From an uncultured Candidatus Saccharibacteria bacterium (GTDB lineage Bacteria > Patescibacteriota > Minisyncoccia > Phycocordibacterales > UBA918): a DNA stretch of 64,000 nt. The DNA is taken from NCBI GenBank assembly GCA_964402035.1, contig CAYOAM010000003.1, positions 86,480-150,479 of the forward strand. The letters are read 5' to 3'. The notes beneath the pieces are model-generated. The model saw only the letters and a list, made by a program, of their open reading frames with translations, ran no database searches and had not been told where the DNA came from. Below are positions 33,812-48,352 of this stretch, piece after piece (within the stretch, counting starts at the first letter, position 1; each line of letters opens with the position of its first letter). A program made the position numbers and the translations under genes.

Positions 33812-34156
33812 ATGGCCCGAGTAAAAGGTGGAGTCCAATCAAACAAACGACGACGAAATATCCTCGATGAGGTGAAGGGATATCGTTTTGGTCGTTCAAC
33901 AAAAAAGCGCTCAGCACGTGATGCTATTTACCACGCCCAGCTTCATGCATTTGCACACCGGAAAGACAAAAAGGTAGATTTCCGACAACTCTGGATCGCC
34001 CGCATGAATGCAGCACTTCGCGCACAAGGCACAACGTACAGCAAGTTTATTGGTGCAATGGGCAAGAAGAAAGGGGCCTTGAACCGCAAAGTGCTTTCAG
34101 AGATCGCACATGAACGACCAGCATCATTTGCACGGATTGTTGCGCACGTAAAATAG
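33812..34156 (+). CDS. rplT: Ribosomal protein bL20
   Basis: MARVKGGVQSNKRRRNILDEVKGYRFGRS...DFRQLWIARMNAAL. Confidence 0.9.
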   Translation: MARVKGGVQSNKRRRNILDEVKGYRFGRSTKKRSARDAIYHAQLHAFAHRKDKKVDFRQLWIARMNAALRAQGTTYSKFIGAMGKKKGALNRKVLSEIAHERPASFARIVAHVK

Positions 34157-34186
34157 TCTCCCAAGCGTAAAACCGTCAGCACAAAA

Positions 34187-34223
34187 CCCCCGCGATTCCC
34201 CTCAAGGAATCGCGGGGGTTTTG
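34187..34223 (+). terminator. Strong terminator after rplT
   Basis: CCCCCGCGATTCC-6 nt-GGAATCGCGGGGG followed by TTTTGC. Confidence 0.7.
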
Positions 34224-34236
34224 CTATACTGTACCC

Positions 34237-34572
34237 ATGAAAAATTATAAAGGAAGCTGCCATTGTGGTGCAGTCGCATTTAAAGCTGACATGGAACTCA
34301 CGGGAGGTATGGTGTGCAATTGCTCACACTGCCATAAGAAAGGTGTGGTACTTGCCTTCGTCCCAAAGAGCCAGTTTACCCTTGAGAAAGGAGCAGACAA
34401 CCTCACCGAATATCGTTTTAATAAAAAAGTCATCAGCCATCAATTTTGCAAGACCTGTGGAGTCCAAGGATTCGGCAGCGCAGGCGAACAAGTCGCCATC
34501 AACCTCCGGTGTGTCGACGAAGTCGACCTCGACACCCTCCCCACCCAAAAATACAATGGGAAGGATTTGTAA
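34237..34572 (+). CDS. GFA-family (glutathione-dependent formaldehyde-activating / CENP-V-like) zinc protein
   Basis: GSCHCGAVAF...CNCSHCHKKG...FCKTCGVQ Cys motifs characteristic of the GFA fold. Confidence 0.7.
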   Translation: MKNYKGSCHCGAVAFKADMELTGGMVCNCSHCHKKGVVLAFVPKSQFTLEKGADNLTEYRFNKKVISHQFCKTCGVQGFGSAGEQVAINLRCVDEVDLDTLPTQKYNGKDL

Positions 34573-34735
34573 GAATCCAGTGTAGTCGCGCTTTATTCAT
34601 TTTCCTTCAGTTCAAGATCCGGCCTTGAACGACCCTGAACTGTTGTGTCAAGGCAGCCCTTGGGAACTTTATGATTTGCATATAGTCCATACTGTGAGAG
34701 TATAGAGACAGTTCTTCTCTTACTCTGGAGGTCAC

Positions 34736-34945
34736 ATGAATGTCCACCGGCCAGAAATACATGTGTCTGCAGAACTACTTCATGACACCGAAACATGTCC
34801 TTCTTGTTCCCAAGAATTCACTGTTGGAGATGGTAGGACATATGAGGGCCCACTCACTGACGGAAAGAAAAATGTGTGGGGCTGCTTGCTGTTTTGCTCC
34901 CTTCTATGCATCACACGCTGTGTTCCTGCAGAAGGGCGAGCATAG
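34736..34945 (+). CDS. Small hypothetical Cys-rich protein
   Basis: 69 aa, GGAGGT SD 8 nt upstream, followed by a palindromic terminator. No homology recognised. Confidence 0.25.
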   Translation: MNVHRPEIHVSAELLHDTETCPSCSQEFTVGDGRTYEGPLTDGKKNVWGCLLFCSLLCITRCVPAEGRA

Positions 34946-34961
34946 AAAATGGTTCGTTATT

Positions 34962-34995
34962 GAAAAGACCTCTACGTAGAGGTCATTTTATTTTC
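34962..34995. terminator. Bidirectional terminator with perfect 18-bp palindrome
   Basis: GACCTCTAC|GTAGAGGTC flanked by GAAAA and ATTTTATTTT, between convergent genes. Confidence 0.65.
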
Positions 34996-35836
34996 ACGAC
35001 TTAATAAACGTCCCCTGTTGGAGTTCGGTGAATGCCTGCTTTATTTCCTCATCGGTATTCATCACAATCGGCCCACGCCATGAGATAGGTTCGCCAAGTG
35101 GCGTGCCTGCGACCACAAGCAGTCGCGCCCCGTCTTTGCCTGCCGCTAGTTTGAGCTCGTCGCCATTTGAGGTAAGCCCGATCTCGCCCGCACTCACCCA
35201 CTGCTCACTTTGGTTTTTAAAAACTACACTACTCTCGATCACATAGATAAATAGAGTGTCATCGGTGTTTGTCGTAAAAGAAAATACTGCCTCTTTCTGA
35301 AGTGAGACATCAAGATAGGTAGGACTCCCGGCAATATCAGAAACAGGACCCTTTGTATCTCCATATGCACCCGCAATCACTTTTACCACTACACCATCCT
35401 GCTCCACAATCGGCACCTGTGCCGCTTTGATATCCTGATACTGTGGCATTGTCATTTTTTTCGCACGCGGCAAATTGACCCACAACTGAAAGCCCTGTAT
35501 GCCACCCTCACTCACAACCGGCATCTCTTCATGCACAATGCCGCTGCCTGCGCTCATCCACTGGATATCGCCAGCGCCGATCTTCCCTGCATTTCCAAGA
35601 CTGTCGCGATGCTCCACTTCACCCCGCAACATGTAGGTCACGGTCTCAATGCCACGGTGTGGATGCCACGGAAATCCTTCAACATAAGCACGTGGATCGT
35701 CGTTACTAAAATCATCAAACAAGAGAAAGGGGTCAAATTGTGGCACTTCAAAAAATCCAAATCCCCGCTTGAGATGTACACCTGCACCTTCCAGAGTTGG
35801 CTTTAGTGGAAAGACTTTTTCAATCGTGCGCATCAT
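34994..35836 (-). CDS. Pirin-family protein (bicupin)
   Basis: HPHRGIETVTYMLRGEVEHRDSLGN and QWMSAGSGIVHEEMP cupin motifs. Confidence 0.85.
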   Translation of the reverse strand: MMRTIEKVFPLKPTLEGAGVHLKRGFGFFEVPQFDPFLLFDDFSNDDPRAYVEGFPWHPHRGIETVTYMLRGEVEHRDSLGNAGKIGAGDIQWMSAGSGIVHEEMPVVSEGGIQGFQLWVNLPRAKKMTMPQYQDIKAAQVPIVEQDGVVVKVIAGAYGDTKGPVSDIAGSPTYLDVSLQKEAVFSFTTNTDDTLFIYVIESSVVFKNQSEQWVSAGEIGLTSNGDELKLAAGKDGARLLVVAGTPLGEPISWRGPIVMNTDEEIKQAFTELQQGTFIKS

Positions 35837-36007
35837 TGGTTTACTATACTAGATAGTGGGACGAATAAGAAAAGTGTGTTCAAAAATCTGTTAGCACGAG
35901 TCTACTAGTATTGTTGTCGGCCTTCCTTTTAGAAGGCCGACGTGAAATTGCGGCGCGGTGGCGCCATCCTTAGCTAGAAAGCCACCCGGGTACCCAAATA
36001 AAAAAAT

Positions 36008-36046
36008 GCCGCCTCACTGGCGGCATCTTTTTTATTTGAGTGTGGC
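36008..36046. terminator. Bidirectional terminator downstream of rpsJ
   Basis: A-run, ATGCCGCC-TCACT-GGCGGCAT, T-run. Confidence 0.7.
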
Positions 36047-36427
36047 TTACATCATTTTTACGTCAATCGAAACTCCAGAGGGCAACGAGAGGTTCGTGAG
36101 AGCCTCAATCACCTTTGGAGAAGGAGCCACAATGTCAATCACACGCTTATGCACTCGCATTTCGAATTGTTCTCGCGCATCTTTAAATACGAATGAGGCA
36201 CGATTGACCGTGTACTTCTTGATTTCCGTTGGTAGTGGTATCGGACCGACAACAGTAGCATCAAAGCGGAGTGCAGTATCCATGATCTGCTTTATTGAAG
36301 CATCAAGAATCTTGTGCTCGTACGCACGCACACGGATGCGCAGCTTCTGAATTTCAGCCGCTGCGACTGCTGCACGTTTCGTCGGTCGCTTTTTTGCTTC
36401 CGTTTTATCTGCTTTTGCTGTCGCCAT
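36047..36427 (-). CDS. rpsJ: Ribosomal protein uS10 with Lys/Ala-rich N-terminal extension
   Basis: C-terminal 100 aa QKLRIRVRAYEHKILDASIKQI...PIPLPTEIKKYTVNRASFVFKDAREQFEMRVHKRVIDI matches the S10 core. Confidence 0.9.
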   Translation of the reverse strand: MATAKADKTEAKKRPTKRAAVAAAEIQKLRIRVRAYEHKILDASIKQIMDTALRFDATVVGPIPLPTEIKKYTVNRASFVFKDAREQFEMRVHKRVIDIVAPSPKVIEALTNLSLPSGVSIDVKMM

Positions 36428-36446
36428 AATAAATGTTTCTAAGCGA

Positions 36447-37640
36447 TTAGGCTACGATCTTCGTCACAACACCAGCTCCCACCGTCTTGCCTCCTTCGCG
36501 GATGGCAAAGCGCTGCTGCTCTTCGAGCGCAACTGGCGCTACGAGCTTCACTTTGAAAGTGACAGTGTCTCCTGGCATAACCATTTCGACTCCCTCTTTC
36601 AAGGTCACATCTCCGGTCACGTCAGTCGTGCGGATGTAGAACTGTGGCTTGTATCCAGAGAAAAATGGTGTGTGGCGACCTCCTTCATCCTTAGAAAGGA
36701 CGTACACTTCCGCTTCAAATTCGGTGTGTGGATTTACTGAACCCTTTGCTGCAAGCACCTGTCCACGATGGACATCATCCTTGGCTGTACCGCGGAGCAA
36801 AATACCCGCATTGTCTCCCGCCATAGCTGAATCAAGTGACTTGTTGAACATTTCAATACCGGTAACTGCTGTCTTTGTTGTTGGCTTGATACCCACAATC
36901 TCAACTTCAGTACCAACCTTGAGCTGTCCGCGCTCTACGCGTCCAGTGACCACCGTACCTCGTCCTTCAATTGAGAAAATGTCCTCAATTGGCATAAGGA
37001 ATGGCTTATCAGTATCACGAACGGGCATTGGGAAATAGGTATCCATGGCATCAACGAGCTCGAGAACCTTGGCACCCCATGGGCTAGAAGGATCTTCGAG
37101 AGCCTTGAGTCCAGAACCTTTGATGATTGGTACGTTCTTTCCATCAAAACCATGCTTATCCAAAAGCTCACGGAGCTCCTCTTCGACGAGCATAATCATC
37201 TCCTCATCATCAACCATGTCGCACTTGTTGAGGAATACGATAATCTTTGGTACTCCCACCTGGCGAGCCAAAAGTACGTGTTCCTTTGTTTGAGGCATCG
37301 CTCCGTCAGTCGCAGCAACCACAAGTACCGCGCCGTCCATTTGGGCTGCTCCCGTGATCATGTTCTTGATATAGTCTGCGTGACCCGGCGCATCGATGTG
37401 TGCGTAGTGACGATTTGGTGTCTCATACTCTGAGTGAGAAAGAGAAATCGTAATACCACGAGCCTTTTCTTCTGGCGCCTTATCAATATCGTCAACACCC
37501 TTTACCGATGCTGAGTATCCACCCCCCTTCTTGTTGAGCACGCTCAAAATCGCCGCAGTGAGCGTCGTTTTTCCGTGGTCAACGTGTCCGATCGTGCCCA
37601 CATTGATGTGTGGCTTTGATCGATTAAATGCTTCAGCCAT
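36447..37640 (-). CDS. tuf: Elongation factor Tu
   Basis: [25 protein letters not shown] and full-length EF-Tu conservation. Confidence 0.95.
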
Positions 37641-37892
37641 AATAATCTTAGATTAATACGTTTATAATGCTGCTGAAATGGTCCGTTGTAGAGGCGCGAG
37701 AAGTGCCCTATGACCAACCACTTCGACGTCTTCCTCTTAAATTTTCAAAAAACAAGGGTTGGGGAATAGAAATACCCAACACGAGCGAAAAAAAGAGCAA
37801 GGTGCAGTGCCGCCCATAGTACAGGAATCACCCCGAAGCGTCAAGAAATAATAAAGCCCCGAGGAGCGATGCTCAAAGGGGCTGTCAACACG

Positions 37893-37935
37893 TTTACAAA
37901 AAACTGCCGAGCTCCATGATGCTTCGGCAGTTTCT
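37893..37935 (-). terminator. Terminator-like hairpin after paralog 1
   Basis: Minus-strand hairpin CUGCCGAAGCAUCAUGGAGCUCGGCAG followed by UUUUUUG. Confidence 0.45.
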
Positions 37936-37954
37936 TGTTTCGATGTTACGGTGA

Positions 37955-38449
37955 TTATACAGCTGGAGTCGTTGTCGGAGTCGTAGGATTTACGAGTACA
38001 CACCCTGCGGTAATCTGTGCCCCTGAAAAACTCTGAGTCGGACCTGCGCCGGTATTGTAACTAAACGATTGTACGGAACTTGGCATGGTCGTTATGATTT
38101 GCCCGCCACCAGGAAATGTACAGACATAATGCGCACCAGTCGGACGCTGGATAACGCGGCGGGTCCCGGCGGCGACTGCGGCATCCTGCCCATCCGGCGT
38201 TTCTGCATCGACATATGACAAACTATCTTCATACACCATTTCAGCATCATCATAGACACCTTCATCAACATATGCGACATCATCTTCATACAGTGCACTC
38301 TCTGCAACCATAGACTTGAGTTGTTGTGCCTGCGTTGATAGCACGGACACACTACCACCCGTCGCAATAACTTGTCCAAGTGAAAAAGTGCTGATGGCAA
38401 ACGCTGCAATCGTGAGAACAGTTACTGGCATATTGTACTTTTCATCCAT
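37955..38449 (-). CDS. Small secreted/membrane-anchored protein, paralog 1 (with acidic Tyr-rich insertion)
   Basis: MDEKYNMPVTVLTIAAFAISTFSLGQVI... It shares the N-terminal signal-anchor and the C-terminal two-Cys domain VCTFPGGGQIITTMPSSVQSFSYNTGAGPTQSF...GC with 38611..38949 and 39114..39446. Start at internal Met. Confidence 0.55.
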   Translation of the reverse strand: MDEKYNMPVTVLTIAAFAISTFSLGQVIATGGSVSVLSTQAQQLKSMVAESALYEDDVAYVDEGVYDDAEMVYEDSLSYVDAETPDGQDAAVAAGTRRVIQRPTGAHYVCTFPGGGQIITTMPSSVQSFSYNTGAGPTQSFSGAQITAGCVLVNPTTPTTTPAV

Positions 38450-38552
38450 GTAAATTCTTTTGAGATCTGATAACACTACTACATAAAAACAATAGCATGC
38501 GACATACCCACGAACAATCGATGTCGTGCACAAGTAGCGATCACAACCAGTG

Positions 38553-38585
38553 TACGAAAAATCCGCATGGTGGCGGATTTTCATG
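38553..38585 (-). terminator. Terminator after paralog 2
   Basis: AAAATCCGC...GCGGATTTT hairpin. Confidence 0.5.
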
Positions 38586-38610
38586 TGCACATTGTGAAGC
38601 TAGTTTCTGC

Positions 38611-38949
38611 TTAGTAAGGAACGCAGGTTGGAGCAATTTGACCTCCATTGAACGTTTCTGTTGGACCGCTTCCCGTATTGTAGCTCACTGTCTGTACTGC
38701 AGTTGGATGTGACGTAATTATAGTCATTTGTCCAATTTGACATTTGAACAGACCGGCTCCTGGTCGAGCTATTGAACTTCCTAAAATTGTCCTTCGTGCA
38801 ACTGCAGCATCTTGAGATATTGATTCCTGTGTTGCTGAAAGCACCTGGACACTTCCATTTACACCGATCACTTGACCGAGGGAAAAAGCGCTCACACCAA
38901 ATGCGACAACAGCGAGAATTGCAACCGATAGACTATACTTCTGATCCAT
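38611..38949 (-). CDS. Small secreted protein, paralog 2
   Basis: MDQKYSLSVAILAVVAFGVSAFSLGQVIGVNGSVQVLSATQESISQDAAVA...KCQIGQMTIITSHPTAVQTVSYNTGSGPTETF...CVPY. Confidence 0.55.
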   Translation of the reverse strand: MDQKYSLSVAILAVVAFGVSAFSLGQVIGVNGSVQVLSATQESISQDAAVARRTILGSSIARPGAGLFKCQIGQMTIITSHPTAVQTVSYNTGSGPTETFNGGQIAPTCVPY

Positions 38950-39062
38950 ATGTTTAAATAAGAGAACTAATAAGTCCACTACACATAAAAACAATAGCAT
39001 GGGTCTAGACCTGCAACAATTGGGCATAGTGCATAGGTAGGAAATGTAAAAATTATTGAAGT

Positions 39063-39094
39063 ATAAAAAATCCGCCTAATGGCGGATTTTTTAT
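39063..39094 (-). terminator. Terminator after paralog 3
   Basis: AAAATCCGCC-TAAT-GGCGGATTTT, near-identical to the 38553 hairpin. Confidence 0.5.
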
Positions 39095-39113
39095 ACAGAC
39101 CTTTTGTCTAGAC

Positions 39114-39446
39114 TTAGATGGCTACGCAGGTCGGCGTCACTTGGCTTCCTGTGAAAGTCTGTGTCGCTCCACTTCCTGTATTGTAGCTCACGGTCTGTAC
39201 TGCAGTTGGATGTGACGTAACAATCGTCATCTGCCCTACTGTACATCGATAAAAACCAGCATTTGCGGGTGGTACAAAAACAGCACGCTGACGTGCAACA
39301 GCGGCATCTTGTGATATTGATTCTTGTGTTGCTGAAAGCACCTGGACGCTTCCGTTGACACCGATCACCTGACCGAGTGAAAACGTACTGACCCCAAATG
39401 CGACAACAGCGAGAATTGCAACGGATAGACTATACTTCTGATCCAT
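39114..39446 (-). CDS. Small secreted protein, paralog 3
   Basis: First 52 aa are 51/52 identical to paralog 2; divergent middle; conserved C-terminal RCTVGQMTIVTSHPTAVQTVSYNTGSGATQTF...CVAI. Confidence 0.55.
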   Translation of the reverse strand: MDQKYSLSVAILAVVAFGVSTFSLGQVIGVNGSVQVLSATQESISQDAAVARQRAVFVPPANAGFYRCTVGQMTIVTSHPTAVQTVSYNTGSGATQTFTGSQVTPTCVAI

Positions 39447-39540
39447 ATGTTTAAATAAGAACTAATAAGTCCACTACACATAAAAACAATAGCATGGGTT
39501 ACCTTGTGTATCCATCGGGTATGGTGCATAACTTCGAACG

Positions 39541-39582
39541 AAAAAGCCCGCGGAGACAAATGTCTCCGCGGGCTTTTTCTAC
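39541..39582. terminator. Terminator after fusA (bidirectional hairpin)
   Basis: AGCCCGCGGAGACA-AA-TGTCTCCGCGGGCT with T-runs on both sides. Confidence 0.65.
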
Positions 39583-39600
39583 CTTCTCACGCTTCGCTAA

Positions 39601-41748
39601 TTACGCGCGCGCCGCCTTAATCTCTGCTGCTACGTTACCAGGCACAACCTCGTAGTGGTCAAACTCCATAGTCATCGACGCACGCCCTTCAGTCATTGAT
39701 CGGAGAGTGGTCGTATACCCGAACATCTCTGAAAGTGGTACTTTCGCTGTGATGACGCGCACCATATCGCGGTCATCCATACTCTCGATCATTCCACGCT
39801 TACTTGAGATATTTCCCGTAATGTCACCCATGAACTGTTCAGGTGTTGTTACTTCAATCTTCATAATCGGCTCCAGAATCACTGGATCAGCCTTTTCTGC
39901 CGCTTCCTTAAAGGCGTGAATACCCGCAAGACGGAACGCAATTTCACTTGAGTCCACATCGTGATAGCTACCATCGTAGAGCTCAACTGAGACATCTTCC
40001 ATCTTGTATCCCGCAACAAAACCGCGTTCCATTGCCTCCTTAACCCCCTTTTGTACTGCAGGGATAAATTCTCCGGGGATGGCACCTCCCTTGATAGCAT
40101 TAACAAACTCAAAGTGATCTTCGCGGTGTATGTTCTTTTGGAGTTTTGCTCCCTCTTCAAGCGGTTGCATGGGGCGAATACGAATCTTCACGTGACCATA
40201 CTGACCCTTTCCACCTGACTGCTTTACATACTTATGTTCTGCTTCGGCTGCGCGACGGATCGTCTCACGATACGCAACCTGTGGCTTCCCTGTATCTGCC
40301 GTCACTCCAAACTCTCGTTTCATGCGATCAACCAAGATCTCAAGGTGAAGTTCACCCATCCCTGAAATAATGGTTTCCATTGTTTCAGGATCCGTTGACA
40401 CACGGAAGGTTGGATCTTCATCAGAAAGCTTCTTAAGCGCCATACCCATTTTTTCCTGGTCATTCTTGGTCTTTGGTTCAATACGCATCGCAACCACCGG
40501 CTCAGGAAATACAATCTGCTCAAGTACGATTGGTTTGGTTTCGTCACAGAGTGTGTGTGATGTACGCGTATCTTTGAGTCCCACTGCAGCAGCAATCTCT
40601 CCAGCAAACACCTCTTCAATCTCTTCACGTTTATCAGCCTGGAGTCGCACGATACGTCCCAAGCGCTCTCGTGAACCAGTCGTAGAGTTATAAATATAAC
40701 TTCCAGCTTTCACGACACCCGAATAGACACGGAAGAATGTAAGTTGTCCCACAAATGGGTCAGTTTGAAGCTTAAACGCCAACGCACAGAATGGCTCGCT
40801 ATCGAGCGGCTTACGAATCTCTTCGGCTTCAGTGTTTGGATTCGTACCCTTAACCGGCGCAAGCTCTGCTGGAGAAGGAAGGAAATCAACCACAGCATCG
40901 AGGACGAGTTGCACACCCTTGTTCTTGAGCGCAGAACCCGTCATGACGGGGAAAATCATATTTCCAATAACTGCTTTTCGAAGTGTTGCACGAATCTGAT
41001 CGTTTGTTGGTTCGTTTCCTTCGAGGTATGCCGTCATCAACGCATCATCATGCTCGACAATCTTTTCAATCATCTCACCTCGAGCCTTTTCAGCCTCAGC
41101 TTTAAGTTCATCTGGGATATCATACTCAATAACTTGCATACCCATCTCTCCTTCAAACTTGAACGCCTTCATCTTGATAAGGTCAATAACTCCCGCAAAA
41201 TCACCCTCAGCTCCAATCGGAAGCTGAATACGTACAGCCTTCTTTGAAAGACGCTTGAGAATACTCTCGTATGATCGTTCAAATGATGCTCCCGTGCGAT
41301 CCATTTTGTTGATGAAACAGATACGAGGTACTTTCGCCTCATCCGCATAGCGCCAGTTGGTCTCACTCTGCGGCTCCACACCCGCAACTCCATCAAAAAC
41401 GACGATAGCGCCATCGAGTACGCGCATCGAACGCTTTACCTCAGCCGTAAAGTCAATGTGACCAGGAGTATCGATGATGTTGAAGGTAAACTTCTTCGCC
41501 ATATCGTTGCGGTCTGTTTCCTCTGACTTTGTCCAGTTGCAGGAAATAGCCGCCGCCGTAATCGTGATACCACGCTCACGCTCTTGTTCCATCCAGTCAG
41601 TCACAGTCGCGCCATCGTGCACTTCCCCGATTTTGTGGGACATACCCGTATAAAAGAGCACACGCTCAGATGTTGTGGTCTTGCCCGCGTCAATGTGGGC
41701 GATGATGCCGAAGTTACGTACTTTTTCTAGAGGAAATGCTCGAGCCAT
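39601..41748 (-). CDS. fusA: Elongation factor G
   Basis: [23 protein letters not shown] and full five-domain EF-G conservation; 715 aa. Confidence 0.95.
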
Positions 41749-41783
41749 AAACGATAAAAATCAAATAATAAATGAATAAAAGC

Positions 41784-41820
41784 TAAAAAAATCCTGCGGC
41801 TGTGAGGCAGGATGTTTTTA
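41784..41820. promoter_or_regulatory. Terminator-like hairpin in the fusA 5' leader / divergent intergenic region
   Basis: A-run, ATCCTGC-GGCTGTGAG-GCAGGAT, then GTTTTTA, lying 40-70 nt upstream of the fusA start codon. Confidence 0.35.
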
Positions 41821-41888
41821 ACCTAACAGTGCGAACACTATATACTAAAGCTGTCTAGGCTGCAACGAAAATAGCCTATAATGATGCT

Positions 41889-42902
41889 ATGCTCCGATAT
41901 AACACATTTCTGATACTCCTAAGCATTCTTCTATTACCCACGACAGGCTTTGCCGAAGAAATCAATGCTGGCTTCGTGCAGGGACTATGGTACTCGGCTC
42001 GCAACGTATTTGTTGATACACCAGTCCGTATATACGTGGCAGTACGCAATAACAGTGAAAAAGATCTCTCAGGAACCGTTGTGTTTTCTGACAATGGGGC
42101 ACGGGTTGGCACCTTGAGCGTGAATGCGCTCCCTGGCCGCATCGTTGAAGCATGGGCTGACTGGAAACCGCTCTATGGGAATCACAAAATTGTTGCGACG
42201 TTTATTGATACGCGAATACTAAACGTCGGCACTACGTCTGAGCGCATCGACGTTGAAAGCACCCTTGCTGAAGATACTATTTTTGTTGACTATGACACCG
42301 ACAACGACGGGTCCGGGAACACGACTGACACGGATGATGACAATGACACCGTATCGGATGAGGATGAGAAGAAACAGCAGAGCGATCCTTTAGTTCCCAA
42401 TCATAAAAAAGAGGTCCTGACAGAAGCGGTGCAAACTCCTACAAACAGCACTTCGACGGAAGAAGAGGCTCCTATAGTACCAGCCGAGCAGACCCAACGC
42501 CTACCCCAAGGACTTGAACGCTATTTTGCCGACAGCGGAAGAATCGACTCCGTTCTGAAACAAACGACGAATAAGATCGAGCAAACAAAGAGCGCAATCG
42601 ACGAATATCGTACCAAGAGGTCTCACTCAAGCGCGAGCACCGGCTCCTCAATCGGGTCAAGCACAATAACAAATACGAGCCAAACAGATGATGGTACTCA
42701 AAAAAGTGGAACGGGAATCTTTGCAATGATGATCGATGGCCTCAGCAGTATTGTGTCAGGCGCCTATACCCTTATCCTCTGGCTACTATCACATCTTTTT
42801 GCAAATCCAATAGTTGTGCAGGTTCTACTACTGTTTCTGATCCCATATGTTTTGGTTAAAATAGCACGAAGAATGTCGCGTCGCCCTGATGGGTTTACAT
42901 AA
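41889..42902 (+). CDS. Secreted protein with CARDB-like beta-sandwich domain, acidic low-complexity region and C-terminal TM anchor
   Basis: Signal peptide MLRYNTFLILLSILLLPTTGFA. VRIYVAVRNNSEKDLSGTVVFSDNGARVGT resembles CARDB. Then DYDTDNDGSGNTTDTDDDNDTVSDEDE, and a C-terminal hydrophobic helix. Confidence 0.45.
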   Translation: MLRYNTFLILLSILLLPTTGFAEEINAGFVQGLWYSARNVFVDTPVRIYVAVRNNSEKDLSGTVVFSDNGARVGTLSVNALPGRIVEAWADWKPLYGNHKIVATFIDTRILNVGTTSERIDVESTLAEDTIFVDYDTDNDGSGNTTDTDDDNDTVSDEDEKKQQSDPLVPNHKKEVLTEAVQTPTNSTSTEEEAPIVPAEQTQRLPQGLERYFADSGRIDSVLKQTTNKIEQTKSAIDEYRTKRSHSSASTGSSIGSSTITNTSQTDDGTQKSGTGIFAMMIDGLSSIVSGAYTLILWLLSHLFANPIVVQVLLLFLIPYVLVKIARRMSRRPDGFT

Positions 42903-42904
42903 AA

Positions 42905-42945
42905 AACCACTATCATGTACGTACATGATAGTGGTTCACGTTTTT
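42905..42945. terminator. Bidirectional terminator with perfect 32-bp palindrome
   Basis: AACCACTATCATGTAC|GTACATGATAGTGGTT followed by CACGTTTTT, between convergent genes. Confidence 0.65.
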
Positions 42946-42956
42946 AGAGCTACACG

Positions 42957-43382
42957 CTACGACTGTATAAAAATTACAGCTTCTAGGTGTGTATTTCCGC
43001 CCTTAAGGCTCTGAACTACAAGGCGAAGTCGAGTAAATCCCTCTGCCGATTTCTCAGGCAACTCTTCAAACTTCACTTTTACGACACCGCGACTACACCA
43101 CACAGGTCTGCGGATCCGCGAACTCTCAATACCGCAAAAGAGCTTCCCTGGATACAACGCGCACACAGGACCAGCTGCTGCGGTGTTGAGAATCAATGCT
43201 CCCGGCACTATGGCTCTTTGGTTTATTTCTATGTCATGGAGCTCATAGTTTGTGTCACCAACATTGAGCATGTGATGTCGAATTTGCTCTCTAGAGAACT
43301 CCAAAATGATCGCCTGTGGCTCTTCAGGAATCTTCCTGATAGTCGCATGCCAATCTTCTCGTCCCGCAGAAATAGTATCCAC
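42957..43382 (-). CDS. Hotdog-fold protein resembling FabZ/FabA dehydratase (possible non-canonical active site)
   Basis: IVPGALILNTAAAGPVCAL and FCGIESSRIRRPVWCSRGVVKVKFEEL align with FabZ [20 protein letters not shown] and [27 protein letters not shown]. The position of the FabZ catalytic Glu is Asn here. Confidence 0.4.
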   Translation of the reverse strand: MDTISAGREDWHATIRKIPEEPQAIILEFSREQIRHHMLNVGDTNYELHDIEINQRAIVPGALILNTAAAGPVCALYPGKLFCGIESSRIRRPVWCSRGVVKVKFEELPEKSAEGFTRLRLVVQSLKGGNTHLEAVIFIQS

Positions 43383-43490
43383 AATATCCTCCCTATGCGT
43401 TCGTACATGAATGACAAATTCATTCCATAGCGCATTAAATACTCTTATCTTGGAGAAGTCAAAAAAGCCAACCTTTCGGTTGGCATAATA

Positions 43491-44048
43491 TTATTTCGAG
43501 ATAGCTAGGACGCCACCCGAGTAGGTCATTGTTCCTCTAGGAACCCATTTATTACTCTCCTCACCGCCACCGACGTTTTTGTATAGATTGGCAGTACCAG
43601 AAAACAGATAGAATGGGAAGCCCTGAAGAGGAGCTACGTGGCTATACTCACCATCTTTGTCACTACCACCAAATACCCCTTCAAACCTCCCCGCTTTGCT
43701 GGCACACACAAGTGCATGCCAAAGAAAACTATTTACATCCTCACTCAGAGGATAGGTATGCTGGTACGCACACTGCCACAATCTCTGTTGTGGCAAGTCA
43801 CCCCTCTTTACAAGATAGATGCTCACAAAGCCTCCGCCCTGGTAACACTTCCACCGTAGGCGCAACCGCCGATTACCTGTCTTTGAATATGAATCATGCA
43901 CACTTTCATTTCGTGTGATGAACGATAGTCGAACGCCGTTGCCCCCAAGGGATTTCTGCACATCATCAATCTGCTTTATTGACTGACAGAAGAATGCTTC
44001 CATTTCCTCCGCAGTGGGAACCTTGCTCATTGTCCCAGGATCAAACAT
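43491..44048 (-). CDS. Hypothetical protein (Gly/Tyr/Trp-rich), no family recognised
   Basis: 185 aa from the Met with AAGGAG SD (MFDPGTMSKVPTAEEMEAFF...). Lies between rpsG and the FabZ-like gene. Confidence 0.4.
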   Translation of the reverse strand: MFDPGTMSKVPTAEEMEAFFCQSIKQIDDVQKSLGGNGVRLSFITRNESVHDSYSKTGNRRLRLRWKCYQGGGFVSIYLVKRGDLPQQRLWQCAYQHTYPLSEDVNSFLWHALVCASKAGRFEGVFGGSDKDGEYSHVAPLQGFPFYLFSGTANLYKNVGGGEESNKWVPRGTMTYSGGVLAISK

Positions 44049-44104
44049 GACATATACTCCTTTTTCCAAACCCACTGCACACTACCTTATTTCACCCAAA
44101 ACAG

Positions 44105-44145
44105 CAAAAGCTCCCTTACGGGAGCTTTTGCTGTTTTATTTTTTT
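44105..44145. terminator. Terminator after rpsG
   Basis: AAAAGCTCCC-TTAC-GGGAGCTTTT followed by GCTGTTTTATTTTTTT. Confidence 0.6.
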
Positions 44146-44149
44146 ACTT

Positions 44150-44623
44150 CTACCAGGCAAAGTGCGCGAATGCGCGGTTCGCTTCGGCCATGCGGTGCGT
44201 ATCTTCCTTCTTCTTGACCGCTACCCCCTCTTCCTTTGCAGCTGACATAAGTTCTGCGGCGAGTGCTTCTGCCATTGGCTTTCCCTTGTGACCGCGAGCT
44301 GCAGCGATAATCCATCGGAGCGCAAGAGCAGTGCGGCGTTCTGGACGAACCTCTCGAGGAACCTGGTAGTTGGCACCTCCCACACGTCGTGAGCGGACTT
44401 CCATTTGCGGACCTGCGTTACGAATTGCCGTTTCCAAAATTTCAACCGGTGCTCCACCTCCCTCTTTTGCATCCTTGATAATCGCAAATGCGCTATGGAC
44501 GATAATGCGGGCAGTCGCCTTTTGTCCACGCTGCATGACATAGTTGATAAGGCGCGCAACATACACCGAGTTAAAAGTCTCGTCTGCCTTCAAGGCTGGT
44601 CGTCGTTTAATAGGTCGTCGCAT
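44150..44623 (-). CDS. rpsG: Ribosomal protein uS7
   Basis: 157 aa with INYVMQRGQKATARIIV and GANYQVPREVRPERR motifs. Confidence 0.9.
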   Translation of the reverse strand: MRRPIKRRPALKADETFNSVYVARLINYVMQRGQKATARIIVHSAFAIIKDAKEGGGAPVEILETAIRNAGPQMEVRSRRVGGANYQVPREVRPERRTALALRWIIAAARGHKGKPMAEALAAELMSAAKEEGVAVKKKEDTHRMAEANRAFAHFAW

Positions 44624-44649
44624 AAATAAATTGTATTGAAATTAGTGGT

Positions 44650-45057
44650 CTACTTTGGCTTCTTTGCTCCATAACGTGAACGGCCCATCATACGCTTTGC
44701 AACAGCAGTAGCATCATATTTTCCACGTACAATCGTGTACTGCACACCAATGTCCTTCACGCGACCTCCGCGAACAAGAACCACTGAGTGCTCCTGGAGC
44801 GTATGGCCGATACCAGGGATATAGGCGGTGATTTCCTGATGGTTGGTGAGACGAACGCGGGCAATCTTTCGAATAGCCGAGTTTGGCTTTCGAGGAGTCT
44901 TTGTCGTCACACGCGTACACACCCCTCGCTTGAATGGAGAATTGAAATAATTTGGCTGGTTTTTGAGGGTATTGAAACCGGTACTCAAAGCACCCGTCTT
45001 GCTTTTGCGGACGGAATTTTTACGCTTTTTGCGTGTGAGTTGATTGATGGTTGACAT
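44650..45057 (-). CDS. rpsL: Ribosomal protein uS12
   Basis: [18 protein letters not shown]...[35 protein letters not shown]. Confidence 0.9.
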
Positions 45058-45169
45058 TGTGAGTATGCGGCAAAATAAAAGGCCGTTGATACGGTGCGTG
45101 TACTGTACTATCTCCCTCTACTATTTGCAAGTACGACGACATTCTTCCCCTAACGGGGAGGGGTTAAAA

Positions 45170-45202
45170 ACACAGAAGATCTCCGAAGAGATCTTTTTTT
45201 GC
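45170..45202. terminator. Terminator between M50 peptidase gene and rpsL promoter region
   Basis: AAGATCTC-CGAA-GAGATCTT with a T-run on each side. Confidence 0.55.
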
Positions 45203-45354
45203 TATCATATAGATAGCGAGCGAAACGTCCATTGCAATCAATGGACCTGAAACTCATCTCGGTATAAAAATGACCGAGCACACGTGCTTTCCAAAAAGGA
45301 GAGCAAACAATCTATCCGTGATTATAACCTACTTTGTACCCGAAAACAACCACG

Positions 45355-45978
45355 CTATAACCCCGTCAACAAGCCATGAAAAGAAGCAACCAAGCCATAA
45401 AATGGGGCCCCGAAGTAGATTATGAACATGAAAAGAAAGATCATTCCAAAAATGCCGAGCTGCTCCCCAAACTGCTGATAGCGAACTTGGATATGTGCTG
45501 GCAAAAACGGTGCAATAACTTTTGATCCATCAGCGGGCGGAATCGGTATAAGGTTAAAAAAGGCGAGAAGAATATTGATATGGACTATTGCTGAAGCTAT
45601 TTCAATAAAAGGGGCTGCGAGGTCCATGCTGACGGCAAAACGCACACAGAGTGCAAAAACAAAGGCGATGATGAGATTGACTCCTGGACCCGCAAAACCG
45701 ACGAGTGCCTCACCCCACTTCTGATTTCGCAAGTTGTAGGGGTTATAGGGAACCGGCTTTGCATATCCAAAGAGCAGTGGCGATTGCGAAATGACCAAAA
45801 GGAGTGGGAGAATCACTGATCCTACAAGGTCAATATGAGAGATAGGATTGAGGGTCAATCGCCCGGCCAGGCGGGCGGTGGGGTCCCCAAGAAAATTTGC
45901 CATAAAACCATGCGCGACCTCGTGGATCACGATCGACATGATAAGTGCGGCTACAAGAAGAATAGTGCTCGGCTCCAT
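45355..45978 (-). CDS. M50-family (site-2 protease-like) membrane metallopeptidase
   Basis: HEVAHG zinc motif in a TM helix, a second motif around NLIPIPPADG, and multiple TM helices. Confidence 0.75.
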   Translation of the reverse strand: MEPSTILLVAALIMSIVIHEVAHGFMANFLGDPTARLAGRLTLNPISHIDLVGSVILPLLLVISQSPLLFGYAKPVPYNPYNLRNQKWGEALVGFAGPGVNLIIAFVFALCVRFAVSMDLAAPFIEIASAIVHINILLAFFNLIPIPPADGSKVIAPFLPAHIQVRYQQFGEQLGIFGMIFLFMFIIYFGAPFYGLVASFHGLLTGL

Positions 45979-46033
45979 ACTTGAAAAATATTGAATCTAT
46001 GATAGCATAGCGCGATACTAAACAGAAAAAACT

Positions 46034-46276
46034 ATGTCACGCATCTGCCAAATAACCGGAAAGAAATCCCAAATGGGAGGACGATACAGCAACCGCACTC
46101 GTGCGACACAGTTTAATCCGTGCGGAAAAGTTCGCCGAAGCCCAAATCTCCAGAAGAAGAAAATCTATGTGCCTGAACTTGGCAAGAGTGTATCAGTTTC
46201 TATTTCAACAAACGCAATCCGTACGATTGCAAAAAATGGTGCTTTTGCGACACTCAAAGCTGCTGGATTGATCTAA
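46034..46276 (+). CDS. rpmB: Ribosomal protein bL28
   Basis: MSRICQITGKKSQMGGRYSNRTRATQFNP... 80 aa and basic. Confidence 0.85.
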   Translation: MSRICQITGKKSQMGGRYSNRTRATQFNPCGKVRRSPNLQKKKIYVPELGKSVSVSISTNAIRTIAKNGAFATLKAAGLI

Positions 46277-46287
46277 GACATTCGAAG

Positions 46288-46328
46288 AAAAAGCGCCGAG
46301 TACCAATGGGTACTCGGCGCTTTTTCTG
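46288..46328. terminator. Strong bidirectional terminator
   Basis: GCGCCGAGTACC-AAT-GGGTACTCGGCGC followed by TTTTTCTG. Confidence 0.7.
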
Positions 46329-47204
46329 TTACCTCACTCGCGTAAGCGTCACGCCATCGCTCTCAAAAGCAATAGACCCTTCTTCTGCAGTATTCAAGAA
46401 CGGAATATTTCTCTCTTTCAAAAGATCAGTGACCTCTTTATGCGGGTGACCATACCGATTGTCTTTGCCCGCAGAGACAATTGCGTACTCTGGATGCACC
46501 GCATCGAGGAACACAGCACTCGAGGAAGTCCGTGATCCGTGATGTCCGAGCTTCAGTACGTCACTTTTAAGTACAGAAGGATCAAGAGATACTAAATACT
46601 CTTCAATATTTGTTGGTGAATCACCGGTTAGTAGAAATTCTGTTTCTCCATAGGTGAGCCGCGCCACGATCGATGAGGTATTGCTATCGAGCATAGTGGG
46701 ATCATGGTTAGGAAATAGTACCGTGAGCAATGTCCCGCCGCCGAGATCAAATGCCATACCCCTGCGCGCATTGATAATCTCGGATCCTTCGGTCACTTGA
46801 AAATTATCGACAGCGTCCGCAACAAAACTTTCTCCTTGATTTTCCGTACGGACAAACGTACCGACTTCATATCGTCGAAATACTTCGCTCATACCTCCCG
46901 CATGATCAGCATCTTCATGCGTCATCACGACCATATCGATTGTTCGATCCCAAAAGCCAAGTTCGCGAGAAAGTCTGCGTACTACGCGGCGACCAGGTCC
47001 CGCATCTACTAACACTTGCGCACCAGTGGGTGATTCTATAAAAATAGCGTCGCCTTGCCCAATGTCGAAGAATACGACACGAAGTTTTTCGGAAGCGGGT
47101 GCGCGATAAAAAGAGAGCGTCAGCGTAAAAATAGCGACAAGAGCGACTGTAAAAAGAATTGCGAGGCGAGCACGTTGTGTCAACCGTGCAACCGAATCAA
47201 ACAT
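46329..47204 (-). CDS. ComEC/Rec2-type metallo-beta-lactamase domain protein (stand-alone, membrane-anchored)
   Basis: FFDIGQGDAIFIESPTGAQVLVDAG, VMTHEDADHAGG and LKLGHHGSRTSSS match the C-terminal MBL domain of ComEC; N-terminal TM anchor. Confidence 0.7.
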   Translation of the reverse strand: MFDSVARLTQRARLAILFTVALVAIFTLTLSFYRAPASEKLRVVFFDIGQGDAIFIESPTGAQVLVDAGPGRRVVRRLSRELGFWDRTIDMVVMTHEDADHAGGMSEVFRRYEVGTFVRTENQGESFVADAVDNFQVTEGSEIINARRGMAFDLGGGTLLTVLFPNHDPTMLDSNTSSIVARLTYGETEFLLTGDSPTNIEEYLVSLDPSVLKSDVLKLGHHGSRTSSSAVFLDAVHPEYAIVSAGKDNRYGHPHKEVTDLLKERNIPFLNTAEEGSIAFESDGVTLTRVR

Positions 47205-47207
47205 ACT

Positions 47208-47420
47208 TTACCAGCAACCTTGAGCAAATTGAGCAAAACGATCCCCGTAACTTAAAATCTGTTCACCTTCCACATCTTTTTTAAACTTGTCGCAGCGAGT
47301 GTCGGTATTTGCATCACTGATCGTACCACCAAAATTCAGATTGGGATGCGAGGACTCATACATAAGAAAACCCCACACGACGAGCCCAATAAGGATGAGG
47401 TATCTGAGTGCCTTATTCAT
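47208..47420 (-). CDS. Small hypothetical secreted/membrane protein
   Basis: 71 aa from internal Met, MNKALRYLILIGLVVWGFLMY... Weak support. Confidence 0.3.
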   Translation of the reverse strand: MNKALRYLILIGLVVWGFLMYESSHPNLNFGGTISDANTDTRCDKFKKDVEGEQILSYGDRFAQFAQGCW

Positions 47421-47524
47421 ATATATGTATGATACGCCCCAACTACAAATACGCAATGCGCATGATCTATTATAAAAAAGAGGCGCATTCGTATGAGTGC
47501 GCCTGTTGATATAGTGACCATAAG

Positions 47525-48352
47525 TCAGGTGAGCTTCCGCGATGCTCTTGGTGATGCTAGACCAAGAGCAATGCAGAGCGCGATAAACCATTTACCCGGA
47601 TCAAAATCGAAGCGACCATGTCCAAGTTTCCAGCTTGTGTCATCGACGTGGTGATTAGCATGATAGGACTCACCAACAGTGAGGAGTCCCAGCATGGGAA
47701 TGTTCCTTGATGATCCACAACCATGCACTTCTTGCCCAAAAACATGACACACAGAGTTTACCACCCAGGTGAAATGATATTGAAATACAAGGCGCGCAGC
47801 AACAGCAACTAAGAAACCTCCGGCCCAGTCATGGAAAAAGAATCCACAAAAGACAACAGGGATAATAAGACCCATGAGTATCGAAAGTGGCCAGTGATAC
47901 TGATACTGCCACCTGAGATACCCGCGCTCATCTTTCCCAGATCGCATGTAGCGCACATCAGCAGGCGCAATTCCTTCTTTGGTACACATCCACCCCATGT
48001 GTGCCCAGAAAAAACCAAACAACGGACTATGCGGATCTGCCACGGTGTCTGTTGCTGCATGGTGTGCAACGTGCTTCCCCTTCCACCACTGCATTGGACC
48101 TTGCCCAACCGCCGAAAAAAAGAGGAGGAGAAAGTACTGAAGTGCTGGACTCGCTTTGTACGACACGTGCGAGTACAGACGATGCGCGCCGCATGAGATC
48201 GAAAGATGACAGAGAAAATAGAAGACGATCGCAAACACGATCGTTCCAGTTTCCGCTCCAACGATTGCATACACCGTCCCGATGATCCCAAGTATGTGCA
48301 CAAGCACAAACCAAGAGACCCAGCCGTAGTGTAGTTCGCGTGACGTACGCAT
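47525..48352 (-). CDS. Membrane fatty-acid desaturase (delta-9 acyl-CoA/acyl-lipid desaturase family)
   Basis: Three His boxes HRLYSH, HVAHHAATDTVADPHSP and HANHH, plus four TM helices. Confidence 0.75.
   Translation of the reverse strand: MRTSRELHYGWVSWFVLVHILGIIGTVYAIVGAETGTIVFAIVFYFLCHLSISCGAHRLYSHVSYKASPALQYFLLLFFSAVGQGPMQWWKGKHVAHHAATDTVADPHSPLFGFFWAHMGWMCTKEGIAPADVRYMRSGKDERGYLRWQYQYHWPLSILMGLIIPVVFCGFFFHDWAGGFLVAVAARLVFQYHFTWVVNSVCHVFGQEVHGCGSSRNIPMLGLLTVGESYHANHHVDDTSWKLGHGRFDFDPGKWFIALCIALGLASPRASRKLT

Follow-up and report, generated by a model that had tools for sequence, protein, structure and literature searches.

The 64,000-nt stretch of DNA analysed here (hereafter the window; contig CAYOAM010000003.1, positions 86,480 to 150,479) carries the genes of the ribosomal str operon on its minus strand, and we focused on the unusually filled interval between rpsG and fusA. 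Pfam identified rpsL (44650-45057), rpsG (44150-44623; ribosomal protein S7, Ribosomal_S7 E = 3e-54), the last gene of the rpsL-rpsG unit, and fusA (39601-41748; elongation factor EF-G), which are followed by tuf (36447-37640) and rpsJ (36047-36427). An earlier reading of this stretch (the original prediction) had proposed that about 2.4 kb interrupt the usual rpsL-rpsG-fusA-tuf order, and we measured 2,401 bp from the rpsG stop to the fusA start, a gap that holds three open reading frames (ORFs). Two are co-directional with rpsG, as proposed, and encode orphan proteins: u185 (185 aa, 43491-44048, minus strand), of unknown function, and u141 (141 aa, 42957-43382, minus strand, GTG start), which shows similarity to the dehydratase FabZ. 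The third, u337 (41889-42902, plus strand), belongs by Pfam matches and synteny to a family of membrane-anchored surface proteins. An identical region was present in a 461.7-kb metagenome contig (ENA ERZ3430527) and in four shorter contigs from other samples. The closest species representatives by EF-G, at no more than 81% identity, are metagenome-assembled genomes labelled Kaiserbacteria, Paceibacterota, Patescibacteria or uncultured Saccharibacteria, and the source is a tiny genome of the Patescibacteria (candidate phyla radiation, CPR) of the Paceibacteria/Kaiserbacteria type.

The gap is punctuated by predicted terminators. Immediately 3′ of rpsG lies a hairpin with 18-bp arms (44098-44137, minus strand; ΔG -31.7 kcal/mol, z -7.9), far more stable than shuffled sequence (as are the u185, palindrome and fusA-leader hairpins described below), which on the gene strand is preceded by an A-tract and followed by UUUU, the U-run being better on the plus strand; a strong A-tract/hairpin/U-tract terminator also follows rpsG in 13 of 16 relatives, bearing out the rpsG terminator that had been proposed. 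The u185 gene is followed by GCCAACC-GAAA-GGUUGGC and U6 (43467-43484, minus strand; ΔG -13.1, z -4.1), and between the convergent u141 and u337 genes we recovered the perfect 32-bp palindrome named in the original prediction (42905-42936; 16 + 16 nt, 100% complementary; ΔG -22.5 / -20), which is a predicted bidirectional terminator for the two genes. Downstream of fusA, an 18-bp perfect hairpin at about 39540-39579 (ΔG -37 with flanks) would end a monocistronic fusA transcript. A consensus scan of 39400-45400 returned 12 terminator-like sites, compared with 5.6 ± 2.2 in shuffled sequences. Judged from these sequence features, rpsG and fusA would not belong to a single-unit str operon, since the 2,401 bp between them contain a gene in antisense, three hairpins of terminator type and the conserved fusA promoter.

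One strain variant (L004, an ERZ3430528 contig with a coverage of ~2.6) differed from the window at 10 positions, all within 44062-44132, a 70-bp patch formed by the rpsG terminator and the spacer, with zero differences in the 2.7 kb around it. This patch could be a local hypervariable stretch, a recombined allele or a low-coverage assembly error.

The promoter predicted for fusA consists of a -35 element TTGCAG (41860-41865), a 17-nt spacer and a -10 element TATAGT (41837-41842) on the minus strand. Its identification rests on conservation: TTGCnn-17-TATA(G/T)T occurs at the same place in 14 related loci as well as the window, with the spacer conserved as AAATAYCG, and many Paceibacteria that are more distant have sites of the TTGCAA-17-TATAGT type ahead of fusA, at a distance of 75-130 nt. 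Downstream of it, in the 5′ untranslated region and ~10-45 nt after the predicted transcription start, a stem-loop at 41785-41819 (minus strand; ΔG -17.9, z -4.5) is built from an A-tract, AUCCUGC, a 9-nt loop, GCAGGAU and U7, so that the terminator-like hairpin of a separate fusA leader, previously placed at 41784-41820, is present behind a conserved predicted promoter. In the relatives, a small GC hairpin (P1) occupies the same offset from the -10 box, and its stems (GGCC/GGCC, GCC/GGC, CGCC/GGCG, AACC/GGUU, ACCC/GGGU) differ in sequence while pairing is kept.

Alternatively, this stem-loop might have no part in a leader and might act in both directions as an insulator or terminator, stopping stray transcription between u337 and fusA, which diverge. 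In favour of this reading, the hairpin is flanked by an A-tract and a U-tract on its two sides, in the form of a bidirectional terminator that recurs after rpsG and fusA, and GUUUUU also lies 3′ of it on the plus strand. However, the hairpin follows a promoter conserved in 15 genomes and precedes the fusA ATG, the relatives keep its pairing at the same -10 offset despite differing stems, and no plus-strand gene ends at 41785-41819, and we therefore regard an insulator as unlikely. A leader element is preferred, the most likely role of the stem-loop being to tune fusA mRNA stability or to attenuate transcription in part.

Individual minimum free energy (MFE) folds, from which the shared architecture was read, showed a pyrimidine tract, UUUUUCUUUUC, after P1 in the relatives' leaders; its pairing partner is GAAAGGGGAG, and the two enclose a variable hairpin. 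The window leader lacks this 3′ partner, and its P1 is extended by A:U pairs into a terminator-like stem followed by U7. Across the clade the leader promoter reads TTGCCGAA..TAAATAYCGTATAGT, and an A/U-rich UAUUCAUUAUUU lies just before the fusA start, which lacks a Shine-Dalgarno site. Conserved leaders of this kind were located in related loci L006 (9875-10000), L087 (5259-5470) and L089 (2055-2225), and upstream of fusA in L091, L094, L101, L103, L105, L107, L108 and L119; those of L086 and L101 carry an extra structured insert of ~90 nt. RNAalifold on the MAFFT-aligned fusA leaders gave no consensus structure, the alignments being out of register. The rpsL gene has a conserved predicted promoter of its own (TTGCAA 45125-45130, 17-nt spacer, TACAGT 45102-45107, minus strand), and its leader (within 45061-45130, minus strand) contains the hairpin CCGU-AUCA-ACGG (45083-45094) followed by CCUUUUAUUUU, the same build as that of the fusA leaders. 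L101, L107 and L007 have rpsL leaders that are alike, those of most relatives being very short.

Even at permissive E-values, Rfam gave no relevant family for the fusA leaders of the relatives or for window positions 36000-46000. Its matches in the window, mir-3926, His_leader and Thr_leader on both strands of the fusA terminator, are spurious hairpin matches.

The plus-strand gene u337 is the fixed element of the interval. Its 337-aa product comprises a signal peptide, a Big_3_5 domain, Asp-rich TSP3-type repeats, a helical region, and a C-terminal transmembrane segment followed by RRxxRR, and its family counts at least 254 proteins, 320-390 aa long, that share 38-47% identity over their full length. 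The family alignment likewise shows a signal peptide, an immunoglobulin-like (Ig-like) domain and a hydrophobic C-terminal anchor with an RRxGRR tail, together with an invariant NAGFVQGLWY motif, an Asp-rich block (VDYDTDxDGxGNxxDTDDDND) and a helical region (GLExY...SLDxYRxER). Pfam matched Big_3_5 to u337 with E = 3.2e-5 and 24.9 bits (gathering cutoff 35.5) and to 31 of 41 family members (E ≤ 0.01, best 1.4e-7), and TSP3_bac to 16 of the 41, whereas CARDB had no Pfam match to u337 at E ≤ 1; the description "CARDB-like" in the original prediction was thus imprecise, the domains found being Ig-like Big_3_5 and TSP3_bac. No sequence-related solved structure was found for u337. These features suggest that it is a cell-surface or adhesion protein with Asp-rich repeats of the calcium-binding type.

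Counted over every locus where a full-length homologue was present, rpsG was found 0.16-3.4 kb from the 3′ end of the u337-family gene in 19 of 23 informative cases, without exception on the other strand, and fusA 0.19-3.9 kb upstream of it in 14 of 19, without exception divergently oriented. In L006 and L007, the two nearest GTDB species, as well as in L086-L089, four contigs reached via members of the family, rpsG and fusA flank the gene, which is encoded on the strand opposite to theirs. A metagenome scan with the family profile added 47 further loci. All six genomes with EF-G at 80-81% identity carry a u337-family gene. Hence in this clade u337 is an ancestral gene with a conserved place between rpsG and fusA, and that conservation in relatives refutes the earlier view that it is inserted, lineage-specific cargo.

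Around this gene the interval content changes from genome to genome. Within the u337 clade the rpsG-u337 gap measures 162-3,362 bp (19 loci) and the u337-fusA gap anything between 140 bp and over 7,000 bp (20 loci), and the interval ORFs of 19 loci fall into 73 clusters, 60 of which occur at a single locus; the recurrent clusters include a DUF2103-like protein (5 loci), a glutamate dehydrogenase (5 loci) and a GFA-like protein (3 loci). The flanks, with SodFe, Lactamase_B, L28, an M50 peptidase, S12 and S7, are syntenic across the clade. For the rpsG-fusA gap, a survey of 80 fusA-anchored Paceibacteria loci gave a median of 196 bp, frequent sizes of 0.5-7 kb and 14 of 65 loci with 1 kb or more; for the fusA-tuf gap it gave a median of 1.7 kb and 32 of 52 loci with 1 kb or more. 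The proposal that the str region is an insertion hotspot therefore holds in part: turnover is clade-wide, but u337 is ancestral and not an insertion. These data support long-standing turnover in an insulated interval and not a recent insertion event.

One related locus on a 1.08-Mb contig (L088, 1052-1623 and neighbours) has more than 6 kb on the u337-fusA side, containing a PemK/MazE toxin-antitoxin pair as well as GIY-YIG, HD, NADAR, DUF924 and DUF1761 genes; the slot can therefore take defence or stress-type cargo. In the window, three small paralogous proteins of 110, 129 and 209 aa are encoded in tandem between fusA and tuf (37955-39446, minus strand). Common to them are a hydrophobic N-terminus (MDQKYSLSVAILAVVAFGVS...) and a conserved motif at the C-terminus (TSHPTAVQTVSYNTGSG..), and they have no Pfam or NCBIfam family match.

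A rival reading, implied by the insertion of cargo in the original prediction, is that the block in the window is a recently integrated mobile or defence island, with u185 and u141 forming a two-gene system acquired by horizontal transfer. In its favour, both genes are unique to the species, the codon usage of u185 is atypical, and the relatives' intervals hold unrelated genes, such as the L088 PemK/MazE pair, GIY-YIG and HD. Against it, the searched interval showed none of the usual marks of integration: no tRNA was found in 34000-48000, the flanking repeats are only short chance repeats, GC content does not shift (0.43-0.49 inside, 0.42-0.53 around), and neither an integrase or recombinase nor any PADLOC or PHROG match was detected, nor any match in phage or plasmid collections. 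In addition, u185 and u141 have separate terminators and so do not form an obvious operon, and the neighbouring u337 is ancestral, so that the interval pre-dates both. We accordingly think a mobile island very improbable.

The two genes of the rpsG-u337 sub-interval are species-unique orphans. Searches of 5.8 billion proteins returned only self matches for u141 and u185, and an HMMER scan of 1.84 billion representatives with u141 gave itself and two tandem-repeat proteins, which we rejected as relatives since their scores are summed chance matches. No homologue of either occurs in 131 related loci, neither has a match in Pfam, NCBIfam, PHROGs or PADLOC, and u185 has none in the PDB or in phage and plasmid collections. 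Similarity of u185 to the genes that neighbour fabZ (skp, lpxD, lpxA, lpxB), considered in case it were a decayed copy of one, was absent. Hydropathy indicates a cytoplasmic u185, and its single-sequence AlphaFold2 model, with a pLDDT of 37, is unusable.

Both are nevertheless probably real genes, because each is in the best reading frame, has its own Shine-Dalgarno site and terminator, and is intact on five contigs. The u185 ATG at 44048 has AGGAG 8 nt upstream, the strong ribosome-binding site previously noted, and the u141 GTG at 43382 has GGAGG 5 nt upstream; a 194-aa GTG-start extension of u185 is unlikely because strain single-nucleotide polymorphisms (SNPs) fall within the extension. 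On a codon score for which confident genes average 0.26 (SD 0.11), u141 reached 0.13 with a margin of 0.22 and u185 -0.002 with a margin of 0.10, each the best of six frames. The five contigs derive from several samples, u185 is identical in them or differs by one residue, and the strain SNPs cluster in the rpsG-u185 spacer and not in the ORFs. A 147-aa ORF (42987-43430, plus strand) is fully antisense to u141, and its codon scores of -0.09 to -0.23, versus +0.13 for u141, indicate that it is non-coding.

The opposite possibility is that u185 and u141 are non-functional, as chance or decaying ORFs in a long spacer, with the FabZ likeness of u141 (described below) being a coincidence or the trace of a dead, horizontally acquired fabZ. 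The lack of homologues anywhere searched fits this, as do the u185 codon score ~2.5 SD below real genes, the lost catalytic residues of u141 and its lack of a Pfam match; moreover, the 147-aa antisense ORF shows how easily long ORFs arise here, and chance matches of 30% identity over 100 aa do occur. Yet both ORFs have a canonical Shine-Dalgarno site at the right spacing and a hairpin terminator of their own, the annotated frame is the best of six with a u141 margin typical of real genes, both are intact on five contigs with the SNPs in the spacer, and in these compact genomes relatives fill the same interval with genes, not spacer. We hence consider it doubtful that u185 and u141 are mere spacer ORFs.

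An unbiased PDB search with u141 gave FabZ (6n3p) as the top match (E = 0.093) and reproduced the alignment of LILNTA with LILEAM on which the original prediction of a FabZ-like hotdog protein was built. Against a FabZ profile made of four FabZ sequences from the PDB alignments, hhalign scored u141 at 29.4 (P = 2.9e-4), aligning residues 54-137 with FabZ 56-143, a score above those of all 250 shuffles (up to 19.8) and of all 519 real ORFs of comparable length drawn from related CPR DNA (up to 26.9). A HMMER model of the four sequences ranked u141 first among 10,691 background ORFs (10.3 bits, E = 0.26), and blastp against Escherichia coli FabZ gave 29.5% identity over 122 aa (34.7 bits). MAFFT aligned u141 with FabZ from end to end with the landmarks LP..P, KNV, N, PG.LI, F.GI, R..R.V and G...EA kept, and the only strongly hydrophobic segment of u141 (58-76) falls where the central hotdog helix aligns.

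The runner-up against the FabZ profile (HMMER 8.5 bits, hhalign 26.9) was an ORF antisense to rpsL in a relative (L017, 8517-9008, minus strand); the null from real sequences therefore has a heavier tail than that from shuffles.

Neither residue of the FabZ catalytic dyad is retained. The column of Glu68 (E. coli numbering, LILEAM motif) holds Asn66 in u141, within LILNTA, in line with the substitution originally proposed, and the column of His54 (GHFP motif) holds Glu52, the nearest histidine, His49, lying three residues upstream in the MAFFT alignment, so that the catalytic His, whose retention had been left to be checked, is not kept in register. Dehydratase activity of u141 is unlikely because both residues are replaced (His54 by Glu52 and Glu68 by Asn66). 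Descent from FabZ, by contrast, appears likely to us from the sequence comparisons: the FabZ-like part of the original claim is borne out as a similarity above chance (hhalign P = 2.9e-4), while for the hotdog fold itself neither fold evidence nor a family-model match was obtained.

A hotdog protein of the MaoC-type (R)-hydratase kind was tried as the source of u141 and rejected. With eight MaoC sequences hhalign gave P = 0.025, 6 of 300 shuffles scoring as high, and the MaoC model did not rank u141 at the top; FabZ is preferred. The segment GDTNYELH of u141 resembles the hydratase-2 motif GDxNPxH but is one residue longer.

Taking these observations together, we favour, with reasonable though not full confidence, an explanation in which the ancestral str operon would no longer be one operon in this clade. 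The rpsL-rpsG unit would run from its own promoter to the strong hairpin terminator, and fusA would have its own sigma-70-type promoter, a structured 5′ leader and its own terminator. Such uncoupling may have created a transcriptionally insulated rpsG-fusA interval tolerant of gene gain and loss, in which the u337-family gene would be an old, fixed, opposite-strand anchor while the content around it turns over from genome to genome. In the species of the window the rpsG-u337 sub-interval holds two orphans, each with its own Shine-Dalgarno site and predicted terminator. The first, u185, may be a young or fast-evolving accessory protein, and the second, u141, most likely descends from a FabZ-type hotdog protein, having diverged fast and lost the His/Glu dyad; with the dyad lost, u141 would not be a 3-hydroxyacyl-ACP dehydratase (ACP, acyl carrier protein), and at best it may bind acyl or hydrophobic ligands, or may lack a conserved role.

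Several points weigh against this explanation. We infer the promoters, terminators and transcription units from sequence and conservation, and since no more than UUUU trails the rpsG hairpin on the gene strand, transcription might continue into u185; a convincing u185 promoter was sought and none was found. Turnover in the interval was compared among loci of the clade, and it may be no higher there than elsewhere in these fast-evolving genomes. The atypical codon usage of u185, ~2.5 SD below the gene mean, means that it could be non-functional or recently acquired, and the strain variants are too alike to gauge selection. For u141, the similarity to FabZ is marginal at database scale (PDB E = 0.09, HMMER E = 0.26), no hotdog family matched at E ≤ 1 in Pfam (PF07977) or NCBIfam, and no FabZ was among its matches in the 1.84 billion representatives. 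A chance tblastn match of u141 to an unrelated short-chain dehydrogenase/reductase (SDR) epimerase was similarly strong. Finally, the single-sequence AlphaFold2 model of u141 (pLDDT 37) is unusable and lacks a central helix, and the Foldseek search suggested in the original prediction returned only noise with it, with no match at E ≤ 0.001.

The tblastn match in question, the best one of u141 in the plasmid collection, lies at the C-terminus of the SDR epimerase on pSymB and was dismissed as a chance match.

A bolder combination would make the fusA leader an undescribed RNA that controls EF-G and the interval a dedicated accessory slot with a repurposed u141. Under it, the RNA would consist of the promoter-proximal P1, the pyrimidine tract pairing with GAAAGGGGAG as a second helix (P2) around the variable hairpin, and, in some genomes, a further domain of 90 nt. 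Its form in the window would be reduced and terminator-like, with a sister element in the rpsL leader, as would fit common regulation of the split str genes. The slot would house the rapidly exchanged accessory genes of an episymbiont in an interval anchored by a conserved surface protein, and u141 would be a catalytically dead FabZ reused to bind host-derived acyl chains. We give this joint proposal little credence as a whole and retain the simpler explanation of a split operon with an insulated, turning-over interval.

If correct, this explanation would illustrate the breakup of one of the most conserved bacterial operons in a CPR clade into separately promoted and terminated pieces, with the space between them serving as a fixed home for one surface protein and as a site of accessory-gene turnover, which would be of use to studies of operon evolution and to CPR genome annotation. 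It also cautions that a gene inside a ribosomal operon need not be a recent insertion. As a probable dead FabZ derivative, u141 would be a small example of the decay or re-use of an enzyme fold in a lineage generally lacking fatty-acid synthesis, and the conserved, unannotated fusA and rpsL leaders are candidate new regulatory RNAs and the most promising lead, one that reaches partly beyond the coordinates first marked (41784-44149). A split str operon with a surface protein and two orphans is real but mostly ordinary for a CPR genome; the plasticity is of interest, but it is not a new kind of system and does not overturn current understanding.

Compared with the canonical str operon of E. coli (rpsL-rpsG-fusA-tufA), the window keeps the same four-gene order and strand, with rpsJ after tuf. 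Unlike that operon, it has a predicted terminator after rpsG, a fusA gene with its own predicted promoter, leader and terminator, three genes (one of them antisense) in the rpsG-fusA gap, and a further three in the fusA-tuf gap. A literature search found no published description of the str operon in Patescibacteria. For other bacteria, Naville and Gautheret 2010 (PMC2965389; with Meyer et al. 2009 as cited there) report candidate attenuators in the rpsG-fusA spacer and twin structures ahead of both rpsL and fusA. The window resembles these in that its fusA 5′ leader contains a terminator-like hairpin and its rpsL leader one of similar kind. It differs in that the fusA hairpin shows no sequence or Rfam similarity to them and begins ~10-20 nt after the predicted transcription start, so that no sensor domain would precede it, and in that the relatives add a pyrimidine/purine helix which the window lacks.

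For the proteins, u141 is colinear over its whole length with solved FabZ enzymes (6n3p, 4h4g, 4i83), with a hydrophobic segment where their central helix aligns; unlike them, it has a replaced catalytic dyad, matched no family model, has no homologues, stands outside any fatty-acid or lipid A gene context, and comes from a host whose group (CPR) generally lacks fatty-acid synthesis. The u337 family resembles known Big_3_5 (PF16640) and TSP3-repeat (PF18884) surface proteins in its Pfam matches, signal peptide and C-terminal anchor, and is set apart from them by a u337 score below the Pfam gathering threshold, by a single-domain architecture of 335-350 aa with motifs (NAGFVQGLWYS, GLExY and SLDxYRxER) specific to the CPR clade, by its lack of a CARDB match, and by the fixed antisense position of its gene within the str region.

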